Position numbers and translations under genes: made by a program. This document shows, one piece after another, positions 5,081 to 64,000 of a stretch of DNA of 64,000 bases. The stretch lies in the NCBI GenBank assembly GCA_020639315.1, contig JACKGM010000001.1, positions 18,511 to 82,510 on the forward strand, written 5' to 3'. The notes beneath the pieces are model-generated. The model ran no database searches. It was not told where the DNA came from and saw only the letters and a program-made list of their open reading frames with translations. The stretch's first letter is position 1; every line of letters begins with the position of its first letter. The stretch is from Candidatus Nomurabacteria bacterium (GTDB lineage: Bacteria > Patescibacteriota > Saccharimonadia > JAGOAT01).

Positions 5081-5143
5081 AAAACTAGCTTTATAGACTC
5101 TAGAGTTGAATCGGAAGTCTGGTTTTGTTTTTAACTTACTATA
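5081..5143 (-). mobile_element. MITE family B, terminal fragment
   Basis: AAAACTAGCTTTATAGACTCTAGAGTTGAATCGGAAGTCTGGTTTTGTTTTTAACTTACTATA. It is preceded by an unrelated 94-bp foldback (4976-5069; GTCTATTCCAG...CTGGAATAGAC). Confidence 0.8.
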
Positions 5144-7276: not shown

Positions 7277-7360
7277 GTCACCAAACTAAATTTCCACTAT
7301 CTTCCTGGGTCACCAAATTAAAATCCTGCAAGGATTTATGGTAGATTCAGTATTTGAATT
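7277..7360 (+). repeat. Family-A hairpin repeat cluster (degenerate GTCACC variants)
   Basis: GTCACCAAACTAAATTTCCAC... and GTCACCAAATTAAAATCCTGCAAGGATTTATGGTAGATTCAGTATTTGAATT. Confidence 0.75.
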
Positions 7361-11301: not shown

Positions 11302-11565
11302 GTCATCCTCCGAAACCCGCCCCTTGTCTTGTCATCCTCCGAAGCTCGGAGAGCTTACGGGGGATCTAGCATTTTGCATTTCCTATGACCAATTCAAATA
11401 CTGGATCTCCGGTATTACCCTTCGGGTAATCCGAAGATGACAGAGGAGAGAATTGTCATCCTCCGAAACCCGGAGGGTTTACGGGGGATCCAGTATTTCT
11501 GCATTGTGCGCCGTCATCCTCAAAGTCTAGCGACCTTCATCTGGAGCTAGACTTTGGGGATCCAG
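11302..11565. repeat. Family-A hairpin repeat cluster (5 units, both orientations) between convergent genes
   Basis: Units present: GTCATCCTCCGAAGCTCGGAGAGCTTACGGGGGATCTAG; rc GTCATCTTCGGATTACCCGAAGGGTAATACCGGAGATCCAGTATTTGAAT; GTCATCCTCCGAAACCCGGAGGGTTTACGGGGGATCCAGTATT; GTCATCCTCAAAGTCTAGC...GCTAGACTTTGGGGATCCAG. Confidence 0.92.
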
Positions 11566-13077: not shown

Positions 13078-13156
13078 ATTGTCTCCATTGTATTAATATC
13101 TATCCCCATCATTTAGATTTTAATCCAAGCTTAAGTAATTTGCAATCCGCGATACT

Positions 13157-13320
13157 TATAGCAAGTTAAAAACAAAACCAGACTTTTGACCCAACTATAG
13201 AGTCTATAAAGCTAGTTTTCTTACTCACCATATCTATGGATATGGCTCTTAAGAAGAACTAACTTTCTAGTTCTCTATAGTACAGCTCAAATTGTCCGGT
13301 TTTGTTTTGAGCTTGCTATA
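13157..13320 (+). mobile_element. MITE family B, full copy (164 bp foldback)
   Basis: Termini are TATAGCAAGTTAAAAACAAAACCAGAC...CCGGTTTTGTTTTGAGCTTGCTATA. The whole element is an imperfect palindrome centred on CCATATCTATGGATATGG. Confidence 0.9.
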
Positions 13321-13350
13321 CCCTGGGTGGAACCTGACTAATTTATAGTC

Positions 13351-14756: not shown

Positions 14757-14803
14757 CGAGATCCTGGATCCCCCGTAAGTTCTTCGAACTTGGGAGGATG
14801 ACA
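14757..14803 (-). repeat. Family-A unit
   Basis: The rc reads GTCATCCTCCCAAGTTCGAAGAACTTACGGGGGATCCAGGATCTCGC. Confidence 0.85.
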
Positions 14804-14806
14804 GGA

Positions 14807-14845
14807 GTTGGGTCAAAAGTCTGGTTTTGTTTTTAACTTGCTATA
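14807..14845 (-). mobile_element. MITE family B, terminal fragment
   Basis: GTTGGGTCAAAAGTCTGGTTTTGTTTTTAACTTGCTATA. Confidence 0.8.
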
Positions 14846-18289: not shown

Positions 18290-18657
18290 TAGGATTGAAT
18301 TCTGGTAATGCGAAATACTGGATCCCCCGTAATCCTCTATGAGGATTCGGAGGATGACAATACACCCCAGTCATCTTCCAAAATCCTGTAAGGATTTATG
18401 GGAGATCCATCTCCCCAGCGTCATCCTCGACTTTTCCGCCCTTCATTTGAAGGAAAAGTTGGGGATCCAGACTTCTAGATAATGGGTTAGGGTTTAGGTA
18501 ATACAGTTACTTTTTATGCTTATTGTTAGTTTTCTGGATACCCAGAGCAAGCTCTGAGTATGACGGATGCAAATGCAGAGATACTGGATCCCCCGTAAGT
18601 TCTCCGAACTTCGGAGGATGACAGAAGAGGAGTAGGTTTCGGAGGATGACAAGACAA
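18290..18657 (+). repeat. 368-bp direct repeat, copy 1 (itself a cluster of family-A hairpin units)
   Basis: I read it base for base as identical to 20559-20926 (offset 2269 bp), running from TAGGATTGAATTCTGGTAATGCG to GGAGGATGACAAGACAA. Confidence 0.93.
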
Positions 18658-18855
18658 TGACACTAACTTAATACTTTGTAAGTTCTATTCAATATACAAA
18701 TTAAGCATTAGTAGGATCCCAAAAGGTACTGACTTCTCCTTAAGCTAATAGCATTGGGATGACAACATATAGCCGCCTACAACAAAACCTGTTTGTTCTG
18801 GGTGATAGATTATCGATCTAGAGTTGTCGCTATTGTGACAAGTCATATCCGTAGA

Positions 18856-19021
18856 TATAGCAAGCTCAAACCAAAACTAGACAATTTGAGCTGTACTATA
18901 GAGAACTATAAAGGTAGTTCTTCTTAAGAGCCATATCCATATAGGTATGGTGAGTAAGAAAACTAGCTTGATAGACTCTAGAGTTGGGTCAAAAGTCTGG
19001 TTTTGTTTTTAACTTGCTATA
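18856..19021 (-). mobile_element. MITE family B, full copy (inverted relative to 13157-13320)
   Basis: TATAGCAAGCTCAAACCAAAACTAGAC...GGTTTTGTTTTTAACTTGCTATA, collinear with the other copies. Confidence 0.9.
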
Positions 19022-19108
19022 CGATGAGGAGCAATAGTGGCAGTTATAGACCATAAGATACAGTCAAAAGTACAGGTTTTGTTTTTCGGGGGCTATAGAA
19101 TTATCATG

Positions 19109-20347
19109 CTACAAACCTAACCCAGTCGCTACTCTTAATACCCGGCCAGCCAACCTAGCCACTACAGAACTATACCCTCCAACATTATCATAACCAATCT
19201 CTATACCTATTACTGTAGTCCCACTACCCAAATGGTCTACACTAATCCCCAGTATCACACTACTAGTGTCAGAACCGACTACATCTAGTTTGGTACTAGG
19301 CCGATAACCTTCGCTATTATAACCTTTGCCAAACTGGGAAACACCACTCAGCCTATCGTCATCACTCATTGCTTCCCTTAGTAATTTCTCGATGTCATTA
19401 GAACCAACCTTCCCTTTAATATCACAAATGATACTCAAATGCGCTATACTACCAGTCGCAACATCGGCCCTAGTAGATATTACTTGCCCGATATTACTTG
19501 CCAATACAGGGTACAGTATTGCCAACTCTTGACTTGCACCCGAACTACCAGATCTGAATGTTTGCCCAATTTCACTTACTCTATCACTATTAGTTTTGGC
19601 ATGGCTAAGGTTTAAACCAATAACCTTGATTGAGTCAACGCCAACCTTATCAGCCACTACCCCAAGTACAGGCGCTACCGCGTTGGTAGTACAAGAACTT
19701 GCTGAAAACATACCTTGATCAATAGCTTCTGCTATGTCAGATTCCCCATCCTTGGCCCCCGATACTATTAAGGGTGGTCTACTATCGCTATCACCCAATT
19801 TCCAAGGACAAGTAATCATTACGATGCCATCAGGATACATCTCATAAAAAGATTGATATACTTCCCTAACTCTTTCTGGAGTCTTGAACGCTCCTGTGGC
19901 ATCAACAACCATCTTACTACCTGAACCAAACCCAAACCCTGTTATTTGGTTTGGATCCCTGGTCATAGTAGCCGTTACTGGCTGACCATCAAATAATACT
20001 TCTTTTTTTTCTCCCAAAGTATAGCCTACTGGAAGCACCTGACCCATCGAAGCATAGACCGGGTGATACAATGTACCATGCTCAAACTTTCCCTGAGGAA
20101 ATCTTCCTGATACATTTGAAAAATTAGCCCCAAATAATCGTGCAACATCAATATCGCCAACCGTAGCCGTATTCGGATCATCTTTACCAAGTAATCCCCC
20201 TGAGAAGTTAGCTCCTACTACCGATAGACCTGCTTGTCTACCTCCTTGGTTGTTATTACTTGCGACTTTTGCAGCAACTGCAGATCCTATATCACCCAAA
20301 GCCCCGTTGATAAATATTCCAACCTCACTGCTATGCATAGCTTCCAA
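19109..20347 (-). CDS. Divergent, elongated glyceraldehyde-3-phosphate dehydrogenase family protein
   Basis: 412 aa. It has a Rossmann start GIFINGALGDIGSAVAAKV, an active-site-like SASSCTTNAVAPVLGVV (canonical S-C-T-T-N) and a downstream SHAKTNSD. It is about 75 aa longer than typical GAPDH. GGGGG lies before a TTG start at 20347; the alternative ATG is at 20338. Confidence 0.65.
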   Translation of the reverse strand: MEAMHSSEVGIFINGALGDIGSAVAAKVASNNNQGGRQAGLSVVGANFSGGLLGKDDPNTATVGDIDVARLFGANFSNVSGRFPQGKFEHGTLYHPVYASMGQVLPVGYTLGEKKEVLFDGQPVTATMTRDPNQITGFGFGSGSKMVVDATGAFKTPERVREVYQSFYEMYPDGIVMITCPWKLGDSDSRPPLIVSGAKDGESDIAEAIDQGMFSASSCTTNAVAPVLGVVADKVGVDSIKVIGLNLSHAKTNSDRVSEIGQTFRSGSSGASQELAILYPVLASNIGQVISTRADVATGSIAHLSIICDIKGKVGSNDIEKLLREAMSDDDRLSGVSQFGKGYNSEGYRPSTKLDVVGSDTSSVILGISVDHLGSGTTVIGIEIGYDNVGGYSSVVARLAGRVLRVATGLGL

Positions 20348-20440
20348 GAAACCCCCTTACTATATAACTTAATTGGTCTTTATATATTGACTATAACAGT
20401 CTTGAGAAAAATAGTCCACAGAACCAACCTTGCTACAAAA

Positions 20441-20530
20441 GCCATATCCAAAGATATGGTGAGGAAGAAAACTAGCTTTATAGACTCTAGAGTTGGGTCA
20501 AAAGTCTGATTTTGTTTTTAACTTGCTATA
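20441..20530 (-). mobile_element. MITE family B, right half only
   Basis: GCCATATCCAAAGATATGGTGAGGAAGAAAACTAGCTTTATAGACTCTAGAGTTGGGTCAAAAGTCTGATTTTGTTTTTAACTTGCTATA. Confidence 0.85.
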
Positions 20531-20558
20531 GCTTCATGACAACGGGGTTAGTAGATTC

Positions 20559-20926
20559 TAGGATTGAATTCTGGTAATGCGAAATACTGGATCCCCCGTA
20601 ATCCTCTATGAGGATTCGGAGGATGACAATACACCCCAGTCATCTTCCAAAATCCTGTAAGGATTTATGGGAGATCCATCTCCCCAGCGTCATCCTCGAC
20701 TTTTCCGCCCTTCATTTGAAGGAAAAGTTGGGGATCCAGACTTCTAGATAATGGGTTAGGGTTTAGGTAATACAGTTACTTTTTATGCTTATTGTTAGTT
20801 TTCTGGATACCCAGAGCAAGCTCTGAGTATGACGGATGCAAATGCAGAGATACTGGATCCCCCGTAAGTTCTCCGAACTTCGGAGGATGACAGAAGAGGA
20901 GTAGGTTTCGGAGGATGACAAGACAA
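20559..20926 (+). repeat. 368-bp direct repeat, copy 2
   Basis: Identical to 18290-18657. It is followed (20927-20996) by extra tandem family-A half units. Confidence 0.93.
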
Positions 20927-21016
20927 GGGGCGGGTTTCGGAGGATGATAGGAGAGAGATGGGTTTCGGAGAATGACAGAAAGGGAGTAGGGTTTCAAAAA
21001 CTAGACTTCAATCAAC

Positions 21017-28620: not shown

Positions 28621-29048
28621 ATTTGTATCCGTCATACTCAGAGCTTGCTCTGGGTATCCAGAAAACTAACAACCAACATTAAAAGTAACTGGGTTAACTC
28701 AATACATTCAATCCATTATCTAGAGTTCTGGATCCCCAACTTTTCCTTCAAATCAAGGGCGGAAAAGTCGAGGATGACCCAAACTCCTGTCATCCTCCGA
28801 AACCCGTCCCTCTCTTGTCATCCTCCGAAACCCGCTCCTTGTCTTTGTTATCCTCCGAAGCTCGGAGAGCTTACGGGGGATCCAGTATTCCTGCATTGCC
28901 TTGAGATTCAATTCAAATACTGGATCTCCGGTATTTCTCTAAAGAGAAATCCGAATATGACACGAAGGGGGGCGGAAATTTGGGCTGTTGGCAGAGAAGG
29001 GATTGTCATCCTCCGAAACCCGGAGGGTTTACGGGGGACCTTGTATTG
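28621..29048. repeat. Family-A hairpin repeat cluster
   Basis: Begins GTCATACTCAGAGCTTGCTCTGGGTATCCAG and includes tandem half units and head-to-head doublets. It ends GTCATCCTCCGAAACCCGGAGGGTTTACGGGGGACC. Confidence 0.92.
28789..28935 (+). repeat. 147-bp direct repeat, copy 1 (family-A composite) left of the RelE/DinJ cassette
   Basis: 144/147 identical to 29750-29896. The differences are two G/A changes in CCGAAACCC versus CCAAAACCC, and GTTATCC versus GTCATCC. Confidence 0.9.
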
Positions 29049-29070
29049 CTACTTTATAAACATCTATCCC

Positions 29071-29331
29071 CTACCTGTAGAGCTGACTATGTGTGCCGAC
29101 AGCTACAAAGAGTACCTTACTTTCAGTTATGACTTGAAAATGTAGCCTTAAATCGCCTCCTGCACTTATAGAACGAAACCCTAACCACTCCCCTTTTAAC
29201 CCGTGATTACGAAGCGAGGGATTGGCTACGTCTTGTAAAAATAAAGCAACAGCAGCTCTAGCCTGTTGCTGTTTCTTGAGAGGTAGTTTCTCGAATTGTT
29301 TATTGAACACTTTAGTAAAATCAATGTCCAT
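29071..29331 (-). CDS. RelE/ParE superfamily toxin (YafQ-like)
   Basis: 86 aa. FNKQFEKLPLKKQQQ...LRNHGLKGEWLGFRSISAGGDLRLHF matches the RelE/ParE fold pattern. It lies 8 nt downstream of the antitoxin gene. Confidence 0.7.
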   Translation of the reverse strand: MDIDFTKVFNKQFEKLPLKKQQQARAAVALFLQDVANPSLRNHGLKGEWLGFRSISAGGDLRLHFQVITESKVLFVAVGTHSQLYR

Positions 29332-29338
29332 AATTTTG

Positions 29339-29620
29339 CTATTTCATTAAGCTATCCAGGTGGGCTAATGCCCCTTTTGCCCCCTTAGTATGTGTAATAT
29401 CACGGTCAGCTACATAATCGGCTTTAGCGTCCCTCATGATCTGTTCTAGGTAGGGAGTAGGCTCTAGGTTAGTACTCAAAACGACACGCCTATCTCGTAA
29501 AGTCTGTTTTACGACCATATTTACAAGAGCGGTACTAGACACACCTAACTCGGTAGCAAAAGTCTTTAGCTCCTGTTTGGTTTTCTCGTCAATCTTAATA
29601 CTTAACTGTACGCTACCCAT
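29339..29620 (-). CDS. RelB/DinJ-like ribbon-helix-helix antitoxin
   Basis: 93 aa. The N-terminal VQLSIKIDEKTKQELKTFATELGVSSTALVNMVVKQTL is an RHH-type segment like DinJ. Confidence 0.65.
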   Translation of the reverse strand: MGSVQLSIKIDEKTKQELKTFATELGVSSTALVNMVVKQTLRDRRVVLSTNLEPTPYLEQIMRDAKADYVADRDITHTKGAKGALAHLDSLMK

Positions 29621-29749
29621 AGTATAGTCATTGTATATCTATCGTATATGTATGTCAATACGATCGATATTGCTTTACAGCCCATAGTATATTCAATGGG
29701 GCCTGAAAGTATCTATCCTGATAACGACTTTAGTGAACGGTATTGTACC

Positions 29750-29896
29750 GTCATCCTCCAAAACCCGTCCCTCTCTTGTCATCCTCCAAAACCCGCTCCT
29801 TGTCTTTGTCATCCTCCGAAGCTCGGAGAGCTTACGGGGGATCCAGTATTCCTGCATTGCCTTGAGATTCAATTCAAATACTGGATCTCCGGTATT
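29750..29896 (+). repeat. 147-bp direct repeat, copy 2, right of the RelE/DinJ cassette
   Basis: See copy 1. The offset is 961 bp. Confidence 0.9.
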
Positions 29897-30103
29897 ACCC
29901 TTCGGGTAATCCGAAGATGACACGGGAAGGGATTGTCATCCTCCGAAACCCGGAGGGTTTACGGGGGATCCAGTATTCCTGCATTGCCTTGAGATTCAAT
30001 TCAAATACTGGATCTCCGGTATTACCCTTCGGGTAATCCGAAGATGACACGGGAAGGGATTGTCATCCTCCGAAGTTCGGAGAACTTACGGGGGACCTTG
30101 TAT
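29750..30103. repeat. Family-A hairpin repeat cluster with an internal ~100-bp tandem duplication
   Basis: The block ...CCAGTATTCCTGCATTGCCTTGAGATTCAATTCAAATACTGGATCTCCGGTATTACCCTTCGGGTAATCCGAAGATGACACGGGAAGGGATTGTCATCCTCCGAA... occurs twice in tandem. Confidence 0.92.
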
Positions 30104-30129
30104 CTCGTACTCCTACCAGGAGGCCACCC

Positions 30130-32167: not shown

Positions 32168-32204
32168 AGATTGTCCAAATTCCTCGATCCATCCTCTATG
32201 TCTT

Positions 32205-32372
32205 GTCATCCTCCGAAGTTCGGAGAACTTACGGGGGATCCAGCATTTCTGTATTACTGGGCAACTAATTCAAATACTGGATCTCCGGTATTACCCTCCG
32301 GGTAATCCGAAGATGACGAGGAGAGGGTTGTCATCCTCCGAAGTTCGGAGAACTTACGGGGGATCCAGTATT
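32205..32372. repeat. Family-A hairpin repeat cluster between convergent genes
   Basis: GTCATCCTCCGAAGTTCGGAGAACTTACGGGGGATCCAG occurs twice, flanking an inverted GGTATTACCCTCCGGGTAATCCGAAGATGAC unit. Confidence 0.92.
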
Positions 32373-32409
32373 CCTGTATTTAATCGGTATTCACTTCAAA
32401 TACCAAGCA

Positions 32410-36114: not shown

Positions 36115-36278
36115 TATAGCAAGCTCAAAACAAAACCGGACAATTTGAGCTGTACTATAGAGAACTAGAAAGGTAGTTATTCTTAAGAGCCATATTCATA
36201 GATATGGTGAGTAAGAAAACTAGCTTTATAGACTCTAGAGTTGGGTCAAAAGTCTGGTTTTGTTTTTAACTTACTATA
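36115..36278 (-). mobile_element. MITE family B, full copy
   Basis: TATAGCAAGCTCAAAACAAAACCGGACAATTTGAGCTG...GGTCAAAAGTCTGGTTTTGTTTTTAACTTACTATA. Confidence 0.9.
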
Positions 36279-36330
36279 AATACGAACAAACTGCAAGCAT
36301 AAGCCTAATTAACCCCAGACCAATAACTAT

Positions 36331-37977: not shown

Positions 37978-37989
37978 TCTTATCATCGC

Positions 37990-38384
37990 GTCACCAAACC
38001 AAAACCCCGCAGGGATTTATGGGAGACCCACCTCCTCTGTCATCTTCGGATTACTCTTTAGAGTAATACCGGAGATCCAGTATTTGAGTTAGCCACAGGC
38101 AATATGGAATGCTGGATCCCCCGTAAGTTCTCCAAACTTCGGAGGATGACAATACAATACACAATGCCGAATACTGGATCCCCCGTAAACCCTCTGGGTT
38201 TCGGAGGATGACAAGACAATGCCATTAACTTAAGAAAAAGCCAGTATCTTTTGACATCCTATTAAAGCTTGATTTGTACATTGAATAAAACTTGCAAAAG
38301 CTTAAGTTAATGGCATTGAGATGACAGGAGAAGGACGGGTTTCGGAGGATGACAATCCTCTCCTCCGTCATCTCCGGTATTTGA
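37990..38384. repeat. Family-A hairpin repeat cluster downstream of rplT
   Basis: Includes GTCACCAAACCAAAACCCCGCAGGGATTTATGGGAGACCC, GTCATCTTCGGATTACTCTTTAGAGTAATACCGGAGATCCAGTATTTGAG and several inverted units. Confidence 0.9.
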
Positions 38385-39060: not shown

Positions 39061-39066
39061 ATTATA
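39061..39066 (-). promoter_or_regulatory. -10 box TATAAT formed at a MITE-B terminus, 6 nt before the gmk ATG
   Basis: Minus strand reads ...GTATGCTATAAT-CTCTCT-ATG. TATA (39063-39066) is the MITE end and AT (39061-39062) is flank. Confidence 0.5.
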
Positions 39067-39226
39067 GCATACCCAAAACAAAACCGGACAATTTGGGATT
39101 ACTAATAAAGAGCTAGAAAGTTAGTTCTTTATATGAACCTTACTTATAAGTAAGGTGAATAGAAAAACTAGATTTGTAGACTTTAGTAGTGGGTCAAAAG
39201 GCTGGTTTTGTTTTGAGTATGCTATA
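39063..39226 (-). mobile_element. MITE family B, subfamily 2, full copy
   Basis: TATAGCATACCCAAAACAAAACCGGACAATTTGGG...GGGTCAAAAGGCTGGTTTTGTTTTGAGTATGCTATA. Its left terminus abuts the gmk start. Confidence 0.9.
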
Positions 39227-39258
39227 TATCATAGGATTTGTGACTATACTGAGCATTT

Positions 39259-39363
39259 CCAGGGGATCTCTGATCCAATTTGCTAAGGAAATTTGAAAGA
39301 TGACAGAAGGAGGGTGCATTGTCATCCTCCGAAACCCAGAGGGTTTACGGGGGATCCAGTATT
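39259..39363. repeat. Family-A head-to-tail pair
   Basis: An inverted unit ...GATCCAATTTGCTAAGGAAATTTGAAAGATGAC, then GTCATCCTCCGAAACCCAGAGGGTTTACGGGGGATCCAGTATT. Confidence 0.88.
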
Positions 39364-39374
39364 TAAAACTAATC

Positions 39375-44934: not shown

Positions 44935-45029
44935 ATCGTATGTTATAATTTTACCATGAGTATTACTCCTCTAAACCAGCAATCCTCTGCGAGTCTAGTG
45001 GGAGCAAAAGCGGACAATCTTTGGCTACT

Positions 45030-45193
45030 TATAGCAAGTTAAAAACAAAACCAGACTTTTGACCCAACTCTAGAGTCTATAAAGCTAGTTTTCTTCTTCA
45101 CCATATCTATGGATATGGCTCTTAAGAAGAACTAACTTTCTAGTTCTCTATAGTACAGCTCAAATTATCCGGTTTTGTTTTGAGCTTGCTATA
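45030..45193 (+). mobile_element. MITE family B, full copy
   Basis: Near-identical to 13157-13320 over its full length. Confidence 0.9.
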
Positions 45194-45279
45194 CTACCCT
45201 AGGGTACAAGACACCCAAATTTTGTTTTAAAGAGTCTATACAAATAACCTTGAGCCAGCTGAAGTAATCAGACTATTAC

Positions 45280-46831: not shown

Positions 46832-47530
46832 TCAGATAATCATCCAAAACCTACCCTCAGGCTCACCCCTCATCTGTGATCTACGGTGAGAAAACTGATC
46901 AACATTACTAAAAGTATCATAGCTATAGTCGATCAACTGACCACTACCAATACCAAGTGTCGATAATTGGTCTAATATATTTGCCTTGACATCATAGCAA
47001 AGCTGACCATCCGATCGTCTAGTCAGATACTCGGGGTTCATCCCTGGTTGTTCTTGATCAAACAAGTAGCTTTCTTTAGATATACCAGGACCCAACACGA
47101 ACTTTAGATCTACTAATTCAAATCCTCGGCTAGATAAATCCTCAGTGACTTGCCTAAGTAAGCCCAACTCTGTACCAAATCTCCCTAGATGTAAAATACC
47201 CTTTACTCCTTCAGCCCAAAAAGCCAACCCAAAACAGTCGGCTATTGGTAAAACTAAACTTATATTATCAGAGTTCGTGACTAGTCCGTCACAAGTTACA
47301 GGATCCAGACCGGCAACTCCCCTACCTCCATCATCGCGATCAACCCAAATATACCGATCCTTTTGCTCACAAAAAATTACAACCACCTCCTCAGGCACTA
47401 AAGCTAATCGATCAAGCAATTTTGCTCGATTAGCCTCAACCTGACTAGACTTACCAAACCGATAATCCAGATTGCCATCACCTTGATCTGTTATAACAAT
47501 CCGCTGGCTACCCTGCTGATAGGTAATCAT
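46832..47530 (-). CDS. pgeF: YfiH/PgeF (DUF152) family protein
   Basis: 232 aa with PIADCFGLAF, GILHLGRFG and FSHRRS motifs resembling the DUF152 Cys/His site. Confidence 0.6.
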   Translation of the reverse strand: MITYQQGSQRIVITDQGDGNLDYRFGKSSQVEANRAKLLDRLALVPEEVVVIFCEQKDRYIWVDRDDGGRGVAGLDPVTCDGLVTNSDNISLVLPIADCFGLAFWAEGVKGILHLGRFGTELGLLRQVTEDLSSRGFELVDLKFVLGPGISKESYLFDQEQPGMNPEYLTRRSDGQLCYDVKANILDQLSTLGIGSGQLIDYSYDTFSNVDQFSHRRSQMRGEPEGRFWMII

Positions 47531-47946
47531 AACAACTCAGCATCAAGGCACTGATTGACCATTGCATCAGCCGATTTATTCTTGTCCCGCAAGACATGCT
47601 CAAACTTCACCCTAAGCCCCTTGTCACTTATCTCTCTGAGGATTTTGGCCACCAGTGGCTTGATATCTGGATGCTTGACCTTCCAATTGCCACTCAGTTG
47701 CTCAACTACTAGCTTGCTATCCATATAAAAGTAATAGCTCTCAGCCGGATACCTATCGAGATTTTCTAGTGCCAAGATCACTGCATCATATTCAGCCTGA
47801 TTGTTGGTAGTATGCCCGAGAAATCGACTATACTCTCCGAGTACCGTACCGTCTGGCAAACTGAATACAATACCTGAAGCAGCAGGTCCTGGATTACCCC
47901 TAGATCCGCCATCGCCATTGATCACTACTAGCTTGTGCTTATTCAT
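47527..47946 (-). CDS. rnhA: Ribonuclease HI
   Basis: VINGDGGSRGNPGPAASG...TNNQAEYDAVILALE...DSKLVVEQL...NKSADAMVNQ (DEDD residues). Start placed at MNKHKL; the track start is TTG. Confidence 0.85.
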   Translation of the reverse strand: MNKHKLVVINGDGGSRGNPGPAASGIVFSLPDGTVLGEYSRFLGHTTNNQAEYDAVILALENLDRYPAESYYFYMDSKLVVEQLSGNWKVKHPDIKPLVAKILREISDKGLRVKFEHVLRDKNKSADAMVNQCLDAELL

Positions 47947-47957
47947 CTCATATAGTC

Positions 47958-47963
47958 TATAAT
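47958..47963 (+). promoter_or_regulatory. -10 box TATAAT 6 nt before ATG 47970
   Basis: TATAAT-ACAACT-ATG. Confidence 0.45.
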
Positions 47964-47969
47964 ACAACT

Positions 47970-49311: not shown

Positions 49312-49403
49312 CATTATAATTCTCACTTCTCCCCAGTCATTACCTATACCCACCCTACTAGCCCTGGCAGCATTGGACCGAGATCACAGATATTCTAAAA
49401 TAT

Positions 49404-49535
49404 ATTACTGGATCCCCCGTAAACTCCTTCGGAGTTTCGGAGGATGACAGGAGAGGGGCGAGTTTTGAATATGATAGGAGTTGGGTCACCAAACCAAAAT
49501 CCCACAAAGATTTATGGGATATCCAGTATTTGAAT
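49404..49535. repeat. Family-A hairpin repeat cluster
   Basis: rc GTCATCCTCCGAAACTCCGAAGGAGTTTACGGGGGATCCAGTAAT, and GTCACCAAACCAAAATCCCACAAAGATTTATGGGATATCCAGTATTTGAATT. Confidence 0.9.
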
Positions 49536-49543
49536 TAGGATTG

Positions 49544-50424: not shown

Positions 50425-50750
50425 GTAGTTTCCCCTGGAACCTTGGGAGATGACAATAACCTCTGCTGTCATTTTCCAAAATCCCGCCCCTATTCTCGTT
50501 ATCTTCCAAATTTCCTTTAGGAAATTATGGGAGCTCCACCCTCCTCCTGTCATCTTCGGATTACCCCTTGGGGTAATACCGGAGATCCAGTATTTGAATT
50601 AGACCCATAATAATGCAAAATACTGGATCCCCCGCAAGTTCTCCGAACTTCGGAGGATAACAATGCTCCCTCTGTCATCTTCCAAATTTCCGTAGGAAGT
50701 TATGGGGCACTTTCCTATTACTATTTAAGAGATCCAGTATTTGAATTTGG
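50425..50750. repeat. Family-A hairpin repeat cluster in a divergent intergenic region
   Basis: Includes GTCATCTTCGGATTACCCCTTGGGGTAATACCGGAGATCCAGTATTTGAATT, rc GTTATCCTCCGAAGTTCGGAGAACTTGCGGGGGATCCAGTATT, and GTCATCTTCCAAATTTCCGTAGGAAGTTATGGGG. Confidence 0.9.
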
Positions 50751-52136: not shown

Positions 52137-52150
52137 TGGGGCTATATTAG

Positions 52151-52367
52151 ACTGGATCCCCCGTAAGTTCCCCGAACCTCGGAGGATGACAGAAGTCGAG
52201 TCACCAGCCCAAATTTCCACCCTACTTTCGTGTCATCTTCCAAATTTCCATAGGAAATTATGGGATCCAATATTTGAGTTGAATCCCGAGGAATGCAAAA
52301 TACTGGATCCCCAGTAAACCCTCTGGGTTTCGGAGGATGACAAGAGAGGGGCGGGTTTCGGAGAGTA
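52151..52367. repeat. Family-A hairpin repeat cluster between convergent genes
   Basis: Includes GTCATCTTCCAAATTTCCATAGGAAATTATGGGATCCAATATTTGAG and two inverted GGATCC...GGAGGATGAC units. Confidence 0.9.
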
Positions 52368-52382
52368 ATTAAAAAATCAGAT

Positions 52383-62140: not shown

Positions 62141-62218
62141 TTATCATTTAGTAGCAACTGCCTGGATAAATATAGGGCTTTTGGGGGTTCCCAAAAAGTG
62201 CAAAATACTTAAATGCGA

Positions 62219-62291
62219 GATATTAGATCCCCCGTAATCCCCTATGAGGATTTGGAGGATGACAAAAGAGAGGCGGGTTCCGAAGGACGAC
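62219..62291 (-). repeat. Family-A unit plus half unit
   Basis: The rc reads GTCATCCTCCAAATCCTCATAGGGGATTACGGGGGATCTAATATCTCGC. Confidence 0.85.
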
Positions 62292-62315
62292 AATGTGAAG
62301 GCGGTAGATACATCA

Positions 62316-63622: not shown

Positions 63623-63786
63623 TATAGCATACCCAAAACAAAACCAGATAATTTGGGACTACTAATAAAGAGCTAGAAAGTTAGTTCTTTTTTGTGAACC
63701 TTACTTATAGTAAGGTGAATAGAAAAACTAGATTTGTAGACTTTAGTAGTGGGTCAAAAGGCTGGTTTTGTTTTGAGTATGCTATA
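63623..63786 (-). mobile_element. MITE family B, subfamily 2, full copy
   Basis: Near-identical to 39063-39226, with a handful of substitutions and a 1-nt indel in the centre. Confidence 0.9.
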
Positions 63787-64000
63787 CTACTATTATAACA
63801 TTTGGCTTAGGATTTTTATCAAAAAAGCAAACAATTTTGGCTAGATAATAAACTAAGTGACCAACAATCTGCCTAACTTTTGGCAAAAATAATAATGCCG
63901 TTGCTTGTAAAACAGCTCACAAAAGTATGATCGTAAATCGTCCAAATAAACACAACCAAAAACTTTCGACCAATTGGGGAATTCTTGGGGATCCAGAACT

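Follow-up and report, generated by a model that had tools for sequence, protein, structure and literature searches.

Which kind of element fills the gene-free spacers at positions 11302-11565 and elsewhere in a 64,000-nucleotide stretch of a Candidatus Nomurabacteria genome (contig JACKGM010000001.1 of assembly GCA_020639315.1; the whole stretch analysed is called the window below), and in which form of nucleic acid does it act? The initial annotation of this DNA had recognised a family of short hairpin repeats and had placed it with the repetitive extragenic palindromic (REP) elements and REPINs. Our analysis shows that the units are oriented hairpins kept by compensatory change, with a constant tag, stem base and post-palindrome C, and that they have expanded between genes in one lineage. 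They are probably Ssn-related motifs (SRMs), that is, NTS-like or CGTC-tagged REPs whose oriented hairpins act in single-stranded DNA (ssDNA) together with a partner of the Ssn family. The family is a known one; what sets the units of the window apart is their long bulged stem, an invariant T·G pair, their dense mosaics and a host from the candidate phyla radiation (CPR).

An oriented hairpin kept by compensatory change

The pattern GTCATCYTC-N18-42-GGRGATCC matched the window 28 times, whereas 100 shuffles that preserve dinucleotides gave an expectation of 0.00. From an alignment of 26 distinct units (A1) we derived a covariance model, which, run with filters off, returned 42 full units (E<0.02), of which 22 lie on the + strand and the other 20 on the - strand, along with a few decayed copies; at least 11 half-units come in addition. 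Pattern collection and covariance model, the route suggested by the initial annotation, bear out the repeat family and the cluster positions listed for it, apart from 7277-7360, where there is just a decayed copy (12 bits, E=0.57). All 42 full units are intergenic. Of the 62 spacers 13 contain units, namely 5 of the 11 between convergent genes, 6 of the 41 between tandem genes and 2 of the 10 between divergent genes; the 13-14 clusters sum to ~3.4 kb or roughly 5% of the window. Identical copies are found at unlinked loci, the commonest sequences being present 4, 3 and 3 times. GC skew is negative across the whole window, and the units, split 22 to 20, show no bias towards either replication strand. 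Rfam covariance models searched against the window gave nothing at gathering score and, in E-value mode, chance-level miRNA matches only.

Each unit is laid out as an unpaired (C/T)GTC, a hairpin that starts with AT and ends with AT, and CCAG, often followed by TATT; it folds in this way on one strand only, the base of the stem being ATC(C/T)TC...G(G/A)GGAT. Among the 42 units the 5' tag is TGTC in 28, CGTC in 7 and another sequence in 7, and the 3' tail is CCAG in 31, CCAT in 2 and CCAA in 1. Numbering of the pairs starts at the bottom of the stem, where pair 1 is A-T in 42/42 units and pair 2 is T-A in 40/42. The sequence GTCATC, described earlier as a conserved 5' flank, is made up of the unpaired GTC and the first three bases of the stem: ATC has its partner in GAT, which adds 3 bp to the stem as first described. 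In most units a bulged A separates 8 outer pairs from 5-7 inner ones, classes D and E have 15-16 uninterrupted pairs, and class H (30 nt) has 11 bp. The bulged A after the eighth pair, reported as conserved, is a feature of the 36-41-nt classes (25/26 units in A1); three other classes lack it, one of 30 nt (GTCATACTCAGAGCTTGCTCTGGGTATCCA, present three times) and those of 48-52 nt.

In A1, 98.7% of the stem cells form standard pairs, compared to 83.2% after shuffling of columns and 26-58% in slid registers. Nine of the 15 pairs change on both sides in a compensatory manner, and the covariation score of 0.443 (vs 0.152) was reached by 0/500 shuffles. The covarying positions are pair 3 (C-G or A-T), pair 4 (C-G or T-A), pair 7 (C-G or G-C), pair 8 (G-C or A-T) and all inner pairs; the inner-stem list and the outer-stem co-variation of the initial annotation are correct. 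The copies are paralogues that fall into subfamilies and the pair counts are counts of sequences, not of independent events; they show that the hairpin is kept between subfamilies, the frequency of repair not being derivable from them.

Pair 5 is always T·G, as had been claimed: A1 shows it in 26/26 units and the whole window in 36/36 parseable ones, and it does not vary over at least 8 subfamilies. In A1 the columns without variation are the G and T of the tag, the ATC of the stem base, both bases of the T·G wobble and the C that immediately follows the palindrome. The covariance score of ~70 bits on the unit strand falls to ~12 bits on the complement at the same loci, which gives each unit a clear polarity. 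Folding with DNA parameters goes in the same direction, the unit strands of four units reaching -10.4, -9.8, -5.3 and -10.2 kcal/mol and their complements -8.8, -8.3, -4.3 and -7.6 kcal/mol.

Comparison of insertion sites with related genomes, also suggested at the outset, points to a recent origin of the clusters in this lineage. A syntenic Saccharibacteria metagenome-assembled genome (MAG; locus L002, 77% protein identity) contains 0 units in 21 kb, and the ferric-reductase and ApbE genes, which overlap there, are here separated by a 336-bp spacer full of units; the unit family is thus a lineage-specific gain. The ferric-reductase-like protein beside 11302-11565 is 100% identical to a partial protein of the Candidatus Saccharibacteria MAG GCA_020428505.1, whose contig stops exactly at the repeat cluster, and short-read contigs of the same species (L001, L077-L081) likewise break at the repeats; a scan of metagenomes yielded two short contigs only.

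Kinship with Ssn-related motifs and a candidate partner nuclease

The CGTC-tagged REP superfamily is recognised by a CGTC or TGTC tag (variant CCTC), by stem pairs A-T then T-A, and by a CCA tail; its members include dRS3 of Neisseria and RPE-4 and RPE-6 of Rickettsia, they have no linked transposase, and no association with RAYTs was found, in many RAYT-carrying genomes (Di Nocera 2013, PMC3733652). Tag, stem start and tail are all present in the units of the window, which also share with CGTC REPs the inverted dimers (often heterodimers with conserved spacers), the intergenic location at convergent or unidirectional gene ends and the lack of a linked transposase. They differ in that the described stems have 8-9 bp and loops of 4-5 nt, whereas here they are long and bulged, class H alone coming near; in that clusters are rare there, whereas here almost all units lie in mosaic clusters; and in that CGTC REPs were described in Proteobacteria, Chlorobi, Bacteroidetes, Spirochaetes and Thermotogae (PMC3733652), whereas the host here belongs to the Patescibacteria.

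The NTS of Neisseria (CGTCATTCCCGCGMAVGCGGGAATCYRG) and the SRMs flank and co-occur with ssnA (Chenal 2025, PMC11893778). SsnA is a 94-aa single-domain GIY-YIG nuclease that binds NTS as ssDNA only and on one strand only, and that cuts a few nucleotides upstream; RNA and double-stranded DNA are not substrates, and RNA is not bound. The three bases before the palindrome are the most critical for cutting and the C after it for binding, and in N. meningitidis the Ssn system restricts incoming transforming ssDNA (PMC11893778). The invariant columns of A1 coincide with these critical positions. As in NTS and SRMs, (C/T)GTC stands directly 5' of an AT...AT palindrome that is followed by C-Y-R-G, with the same positions conserved; a further likeness lies in the hundreds of clustered intergenic copies that bracket genes and are enriched in symbionts. 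Class H (CGTCATACTC...) resembles NTSvar (CGTCATACTCGGG...CCCGAGTATC). The differences concern the length of the unit (36-52 nt vs about 28 nt), pair 5 (T·G here, C-G in NTS and T-A in NTSvar) and the host, a CPR bacterium, CPR hosts not being mentioned in the main text of PMC11893778.

Support for an Ssn partner came from the neighbourhoods of such motifs in other genomes. Clustering of open reading frames (ORFs) from motif-bearing loci, done before the comparison with PMC11893778, revealed small GIY-YIG proteins beside units and, besides this family, housekeeping genes only. Ssn-type GIY-YIG ORFs adjoin units in four loci that had been chosen solely for the motif (L006, on both sides, L050, L039 and L046), and in the last three, T·G-type units lie next to the ssn gene. 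A profile search found a 104-aa GIY-YIG protein of Candidatus Saccharibacteria (P0146, locus L084), 64% identical to the Phycisphaerae protein of L006, whose gene lies between efp and tlyA and is flanked by TGTCATGCCGGGCTTGACCCGGCATCCAG on one side and by inverted TGTCATTCCGGGCTTGACCCGGAATCCAG on the other. When Ssn-type genes were chosen regardless of repeats, 3/3 were flanked by units on both sides (P0146 in L084, and those of L097 and L099, where the units are canonical). Neither efp nor tlyA lies in the 64-kb window, and among the GIY-YIG matches listed none was tied to this organism.

A GIY-YIG subgroup of CPR bacteria, found from the Doudnabacteria locus L010, was rejected as a partner: it is not SRM-associated and lies among tRNA-Lys-like sequences. 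Its members, of 85-98 aa, are found in Doudnabacteria, Moranbacteria and others between tRNA genes (L010 6942-7202; L090 3001-3267; L093 3001-3297; L095 3001-3270), and their flanks are tRNA-like, with the anticodon loop CTCTTAAGC, the middle of the upstream copy being replaced by a GC hairpin. Judging from these sequences, the subgroup looks like a homing-endonuclease-type element aimed at tRNA-Lys genes.

A scan for the flank pattern with one genome per species gave at least 72 loci, against ~14 expected by chance (a rough estimate), in Azospirillaceae, Rickettsiales, several CPR groups, Caldisericota, Neisseriaceae, Sulfurovum and others, all of the form GTCATCCTC-hairpin-GGGGATCCAG. We do not take the T·G pair of these loci as conserved across phyla, as it was imposed by the search pattern and Watson-Crick units (ATTCC..., ATCCC...) occur in the same genomes; with both types coexisting in other genomes, T·G is not universal in the superfamily. 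Matches in the Roseobacter group (L013, L034, L042, L047, L049, L075) were set aside as one conserved syntenic locus, not repeats: in Pseudophaeobacter, Phaeobacter and Algirhabdus, GTCATCCTCGCTGATG...GGAGATCCAGAATGG stands just before a start codon, as a single-copy conserved leader or regulatory region. Near-identical units occur in Doudnabacteria JAHFJI01 (L010, L015, L023, L024; GTCATCCTCGGGCGAGTCCGCGAAGACCCGGGGATCCAGTAT) and Saccharibacteria CAZCTL01 (L016, L020; ...GTCCTCGAAG...), which suggests horizontal transfer of the repeat system across CPR classes or mis-binned MAGs.

Two other identities were considered and dropped. GC content and repeat style suggested cyanobacterial small dispersed repeats or a Nezha-type MITE (a miniature transposable element with inverted repeats), but the neighbouring proteins place the window in Candidatus Saccharibacteria; and the likeness of short units to the type I-E CRISPR repeat (CCCCGCGCCAGCGGGGAT) was judged a coincidence of GC-rich tetraloop hairpins, with neither spacers nor cas genes. 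A literature search by raw unit sequence returned primers and unrelated matches only.

In light of the SsnA biochemistry, a mechanism can be proposed. A small single-domain GIY-YIG Ssn endonuclease, encoded elsewhere in the genome, would bind the unit hairpin and nick the single strand within the pyrimidine-rich leader, at a distance of a few nucleotides upstream of the tag. Together, the T·G pair and the bulged A would keep the hairpin good on the recognised strand, whereas the complement, with an A·C mismatch and a bulged T, would form a poorer one, and it is this poorer complement hairpin that would give each unit its polarity. The nuclease would have to tolerate, or may even require, the long stem, the T·G and the bulge. 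The family may have spread as non-autonomous DNA that entered spacers without genes, mainly next to the 3' ends of genes, the subfamilies keeping the protein-contact positions while the upper stem drifts by compensatory changes, and nicking could drive copying or modulate recombination around the bracketed genes.

Several observations weigh against this reading. The published SRM pattern, HGTCWYN(0-2)YYVSBRHN(0-5)WNVSBRGN(0-2)RNCYNB, has 0 matches in the window; when its loop term alone is widened from N(0-5) to N(0-30) it has 25, all at units, so that the flank and stem-base terms of the pattern hold while the length term does not. The stem of 13-16 bp with its usual bulged A is longer than the 8-9 bp of the families described so far. 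SsnA activity was lost when the sequence of the palindrome was changed with the hairpin preserved (PMC11893778), which makes it an assumption that one enzyme reads many different upper stems, and 19% of SRM-rich genomes are without a detectable ssnA homolog (PMC11893778). The folding gap between unit strand and complement is modest (1.0-2.6 kcal/mol). No ssn or other GIY-YIG gene was found in the 64-kb window (hmmsearch --max with E up to 10; tblastn), which is the part of the genome that the analysis covered; we infer that the cognate ssn lies elsewhere in this genome.

A different view is that the units act mainly as RNA, as hairpins in 3' untranslated regions that terminate transcription or shield mRNAs from exonucleases, the T·G being a G·U pair. 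Units are indeed enriched at 3' gene ends (5/11 convergent spacers vs 8/51 others) and would be stable as RNA hairpins (-16 to -28 kcal/mol), and the literature cited in PMC3733652 documents functions of this kind for classical REPs. Yet the 22 to 20 split shows no orientation bias though most genes of the window are on the - strand, the first unit after a stop codon is sense in 7 cases and antisense in 4 (manual reading), the hairpins lack a following T-run, and no Rfam family matches. The unpaired GTC and C flanks, moreover, have no known role in terminators and are the contact and cutting determinants of Ssn, and SsnA does not bind RNA (PMC11893778). We consider a mainly RNA-based role improbable, a side effect of the units on transcripts being possible. 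The initial annotation had argued for selection on a single-stranded DNA or RNA hairpin: recognition of one strand is upheld by the T·G, the bulge and the oriented flanks, and the RNA option is disfavoured by the lack of bias relative to transcription.

Mosaic clusters, half-units and spread

The units are arranged in mosaic clusters of alternating orientation, neighbouring units forming 11 tail-facing, 11 tag-facing and 7 same-orientation pairs; in the cluster at 11302-11565 a half-unit is joined by four full units, oriented + - + +. Tail-facing pairs combine a unit of subfamily A (ATCCTCCG...) with one of subfamily B (ATCTTCGG...) into a heterodimer whose spacer is conserved, and tag-facing junctions are separated by 3-5 nt in model coordinates. 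Three tail-facing doublets folded as ssDNA into one long structure (-29.1, -24.1 and -23.6 kcal/mol; z -6.8, -4.8 and -5.7), in which outer arms and tails pair between the units and the inner hairpins remain separate. The REPIN-like inverted doublets reported earlier are thus confirmed.

The assignment to REPs and REPINs had drawn on this architecture; under it, a RAYT (an IS200/IS605-type Y1 HUH transposase) with its gene elsewhere would mobilise the units in trans. GTAG-tagged REPs, REPINs and BIMEs share with the units the short tagged hairpins recognised as ssDNA, the inverted doublets and the alternating unit types (Nunvar 2010; PMC3116915), as well as the expansion within a genome and the single-copy partner gene flanked by repeats. 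In keeping with a RAYT, the units of the window have an oriented hairpin with a 5' tag, a BIME-like alternation of two unit types and doublets that fold into a long REPIN-like ssDNA structure, and a Y1_Tnp gene is present in another Saccharibacteria genome: locus L084 encodes, besides its ssn gene, a 212-aa Y1_Tnp (RAYT/IS200-like) protein (18779-19417) and an IS1595-type DDE transposase, so both kinds of ssDNA enzyme exist in the Saccharibacteria phylum. However, the units have a (C/T)GTC tag where a GTAG would be expected; the AT...AT stem base and CCA tail are the signature of the CGTC class, for which no RAYT association was found in many RAYT-carrying genomes (PMC3733652); and it is Ssn-type genes, not RAYTs, that flank such units in L006, L050, L084, L097 and L099. 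As had been stated, there is no transposase in the window: Pfam scans of ~55 ORFs and HUH/Y1 searches found none (best tblastn E 0.12). The partner demonstrated by experiment for this motif class is Ssn (PMC11893778), which has a GIY-YIG nuclease fold and chemistry instead of those of a HUH Y1 transposase. We regard the RAYT assignment as very improbable. IS200/IS605 ends and integron attC sites offer a looser parallel, being imperfect hairpins in which mismatches or extrahelical bases mark the recognised strand and in which the stem base is conserved and the upper stem variable; they differ in consensus and in enzyme (Y1 transposase and tyrosine recombinase, respectively), and the window bears no sign of transposon ends or cassette recombination at the units.

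The half-units had been overlooked. A half-unit is made of the tag, the 5' arm, which breaks off one base into the loop, and a pyrimidine-rich leader of 11-12 nt. A full unit of the same orientation always follows downstream, and as many as four half-units form an array with a period of 28-29 nt. A metagenome contig with the same family (L082) has at least 6 of them, and half-units were also seen beside units in six other phyla-level groups. Their breakpoint lies where the hairpin would stall a polymerase, which would fit ssDNA-based copying. A bolder version of the Ssn hypothesis would have the window carry a derived, self-expanding SRM system with an obligatory T·G and the bulge as polarity marks and the half-unit arrays as footprints of copying, in which Ssn nicks the leader and the ensuing synthesis stalls at the extruded hairpin or changes template there. 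We regard this as doubtful; if true, the half-unit arrays would be the first handle on how CGTC REPs and SRMs multiply, and the clusters around the GAPDH-like gene and the YafQ/RelB pair (described below) may be marks of gene exchange by way of ssDNA, the bacterium being one that relies on taking up DNA.

Multi-unit blocks have also been copied whole, as a 368-bp perfect repeat and as 117- and 152-nt blocks with 95-97% identity. Such block copying would be expected of orphan relics, whose nuclease has been lost and which spread by recombination, segmental duplication and gene conversion alone, with no sequence-specific enzyme; the several decayed copies, the window without ssn gene and the 19% of SRM-rich genomes lacking an ssnA homolog (PMC11893778) are in line with this. 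On the other hand, tag, stem base, T·G and post-palindrome C are invariant over at least 8 subfamilies with wholly different upper stems, which suggests continuing constraint on the protein-contact positions, identical copies (4, 3 and 3) occur at unlinked loci, and the density is very high for a reduced genome. Relics are in our judgement unlikely, and units still read by an Ssn nuclease remain the explanation that we prefer.

Features of the window and neighbouring genes

Clusters and units of the repeat family in the window, with strand and covariance score.
Feature	Position	Strand	Score
Decayed copies GTCACCAAA...GGATTTATGGTAGATTCAGTATT, outer 5' arm gone	7277..7360	+	12.2 bits, E 0.57
Half-unit: tag and 5' arm GTCATCCTCCGAAACCCG, pyrimidine-rich leader CCCCTTGTCTT running into next unit	11302..11330	+	
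Full unit, class A: TGTC, ATCCTCCG-AAGCTC-GGA-GAGCTT-A-CGGGGGAT, CTAG; T·G at pair 5, bulged A	11330..11369	+	69.8 bits
Full unit, class B: TGTC, ATCTTCGG-ATTACCC-GAA-GGGTAAT-A-CCGGAGAT, CCAG; tail-facing heterodimer partner of 11330..11369	11401..11442	-	64.4 bits
Full unit, class A, inner stem AAACCC/GGGTTT; tag-facing to class B unit 11401..11442, 13-nt spacer	11454..11493	+	72 bits
Full unit, class E: CGTC, ATCCTC-AAAGTCTAGC...GCTAGACTTT-GGGGAT, CCAG; 16 uninterrupted pairs, no bulge, T·G kept	11512..11565	+	28.9 bits
Lone class A unit abutting half copy of 165-nt palindromic element	14757..14806	-	64.4 bits
Five full units (F-, C+, D+, H-, A-) and one half-unit; copy 1 of 368-bp perfect direct repeat	18290..18657	mixed	
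Copy 2 of 368-bp repeat (20559-20926), then three more half-units, 28-29-nt period	20559..21006	mixed	
Cluster H+, D-, two half-units, A+, B'-, A+ (degenerate tail)	28621..29050	mixed	
Two half-units, then A+ B- A+ B- A+ at 127-nt period, BIME-like alternation	29749..30107	mixed	
A+ B- A+ between convergent gene ends (DAGK-like gene, ProRS)	32201..32375	mixed	
Decayed unit, B+ A- A-, half-unit (38320-38355, -), fragments; convergent ends of L20 and guanylate-kinase-like gene	37987..38384	mixed	
Decayed unit (-) and class A unit (39317-39366, +)	39261..39366	mixed	
Class G unit (-) and decayed C'-type unit (+)	49401..49536	mixed	
Units 50494-50544 (+), 50545-50597 (+, B), 50616-50665 (-, A), 50670-50717 (+), fragments; divergent spacer	50425..50750	mixed	
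A-, C-like +, A-, half-unit; between convergent gene ends	52145..52371	mixed	
F-like unit and one degenerate half-unit	62216..62293	-	

A sub-lineage of units starts with GTCACCAAA(C/T)C instead of GTCATCTTCC (2710-2753 on the - strand, 7305-7357, 37987-38041, 49481-49536 and 52201-52230); these have lost the 5' outer arm and retain the inner hairpin and the 3' half, and are either decayed or recombinant copies.

Some genes are bracketed by clusters. The two copies of the 368-bp direct repeat flank a 1.9-kb segment (18658-20558) that contains a divergent GAPDH-like gene (19109-20347, motif SSCTTN, no Pfam match) and two 165-nt palindromes. In the relative L002, TGT adjoins the aldolase gene with nothing in between and the GAPDH-like gene is absent, and from this arrangement the segment looks like a recent cassette insertion or a duplication through the repeat cluster. 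The ORF 19109-20347 was considered as a mobilising enzyme, as identical clusters flank it, and was dismissed on account of its GAPDH-type active-site motif and the absence of any nuclease or transposase signal. A YafQ/ParE-type toxin (86 aa) and a RelB-like antitoxin (93 aa), at 29071-29620 on the - strand, sit exactly between the clusters 28621-29050 and 29749-30107, and an LssY_C protein and a 440-aa unknown protein are bracketed likewise. Clusters around accessory-looking genes echo the NTS-gene-NTS arrangement of Neisseria.

The window holds a second repeat family, a near-perfect palindromic element of ~165 nt with the ends TATAGCAAG...CTTGCTATA, in at least 7 copies of which two are 98% identical (13153-13321, 18856-19022, 20367-20533, 36115-36281, 39063-39229, 45026-45194 and 63623-63789), along with half copies at 5081-5143 and 14812-14845. 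It folds as a single long hairpin (-39.8 kcal/mol, z -8.5) and resembles a MITE, the window containing no transposase; its ends (TTGCTATA) are turned towards the neighbouring genes and could carry promoter-like signals. A 146-aa protein of the RNase H / RVT_3 type (47527-47967, - strand) is probably an ordinary RNase HI unrelated to the repeats.

If the units are SRMs, a repeat that could vaguely be called 'REP-like' joins a family whose biochemistry was established in 2025, and the genome is predicted to encode a GIY-YIG ssDNA nuclease of ~90-105 aa that would nick a short way upstream of every unit. SRMs would then extend to a CPR bacterium in which they take up ~5% of the sequence analysed, a notable share in a reduced genome, and the family would be undercounted in surveys, as the published SRM pattern misses long-stem variants. 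With at least 8 upper stems, a T·G that never varies and a bulge that only some units have, the window would provide a natural mutational series for the way in which Ssn enzymes read their sites, relevant to their proposed use as ssDNA tools, and the half-unit arrays may bear on how these repeats spread.

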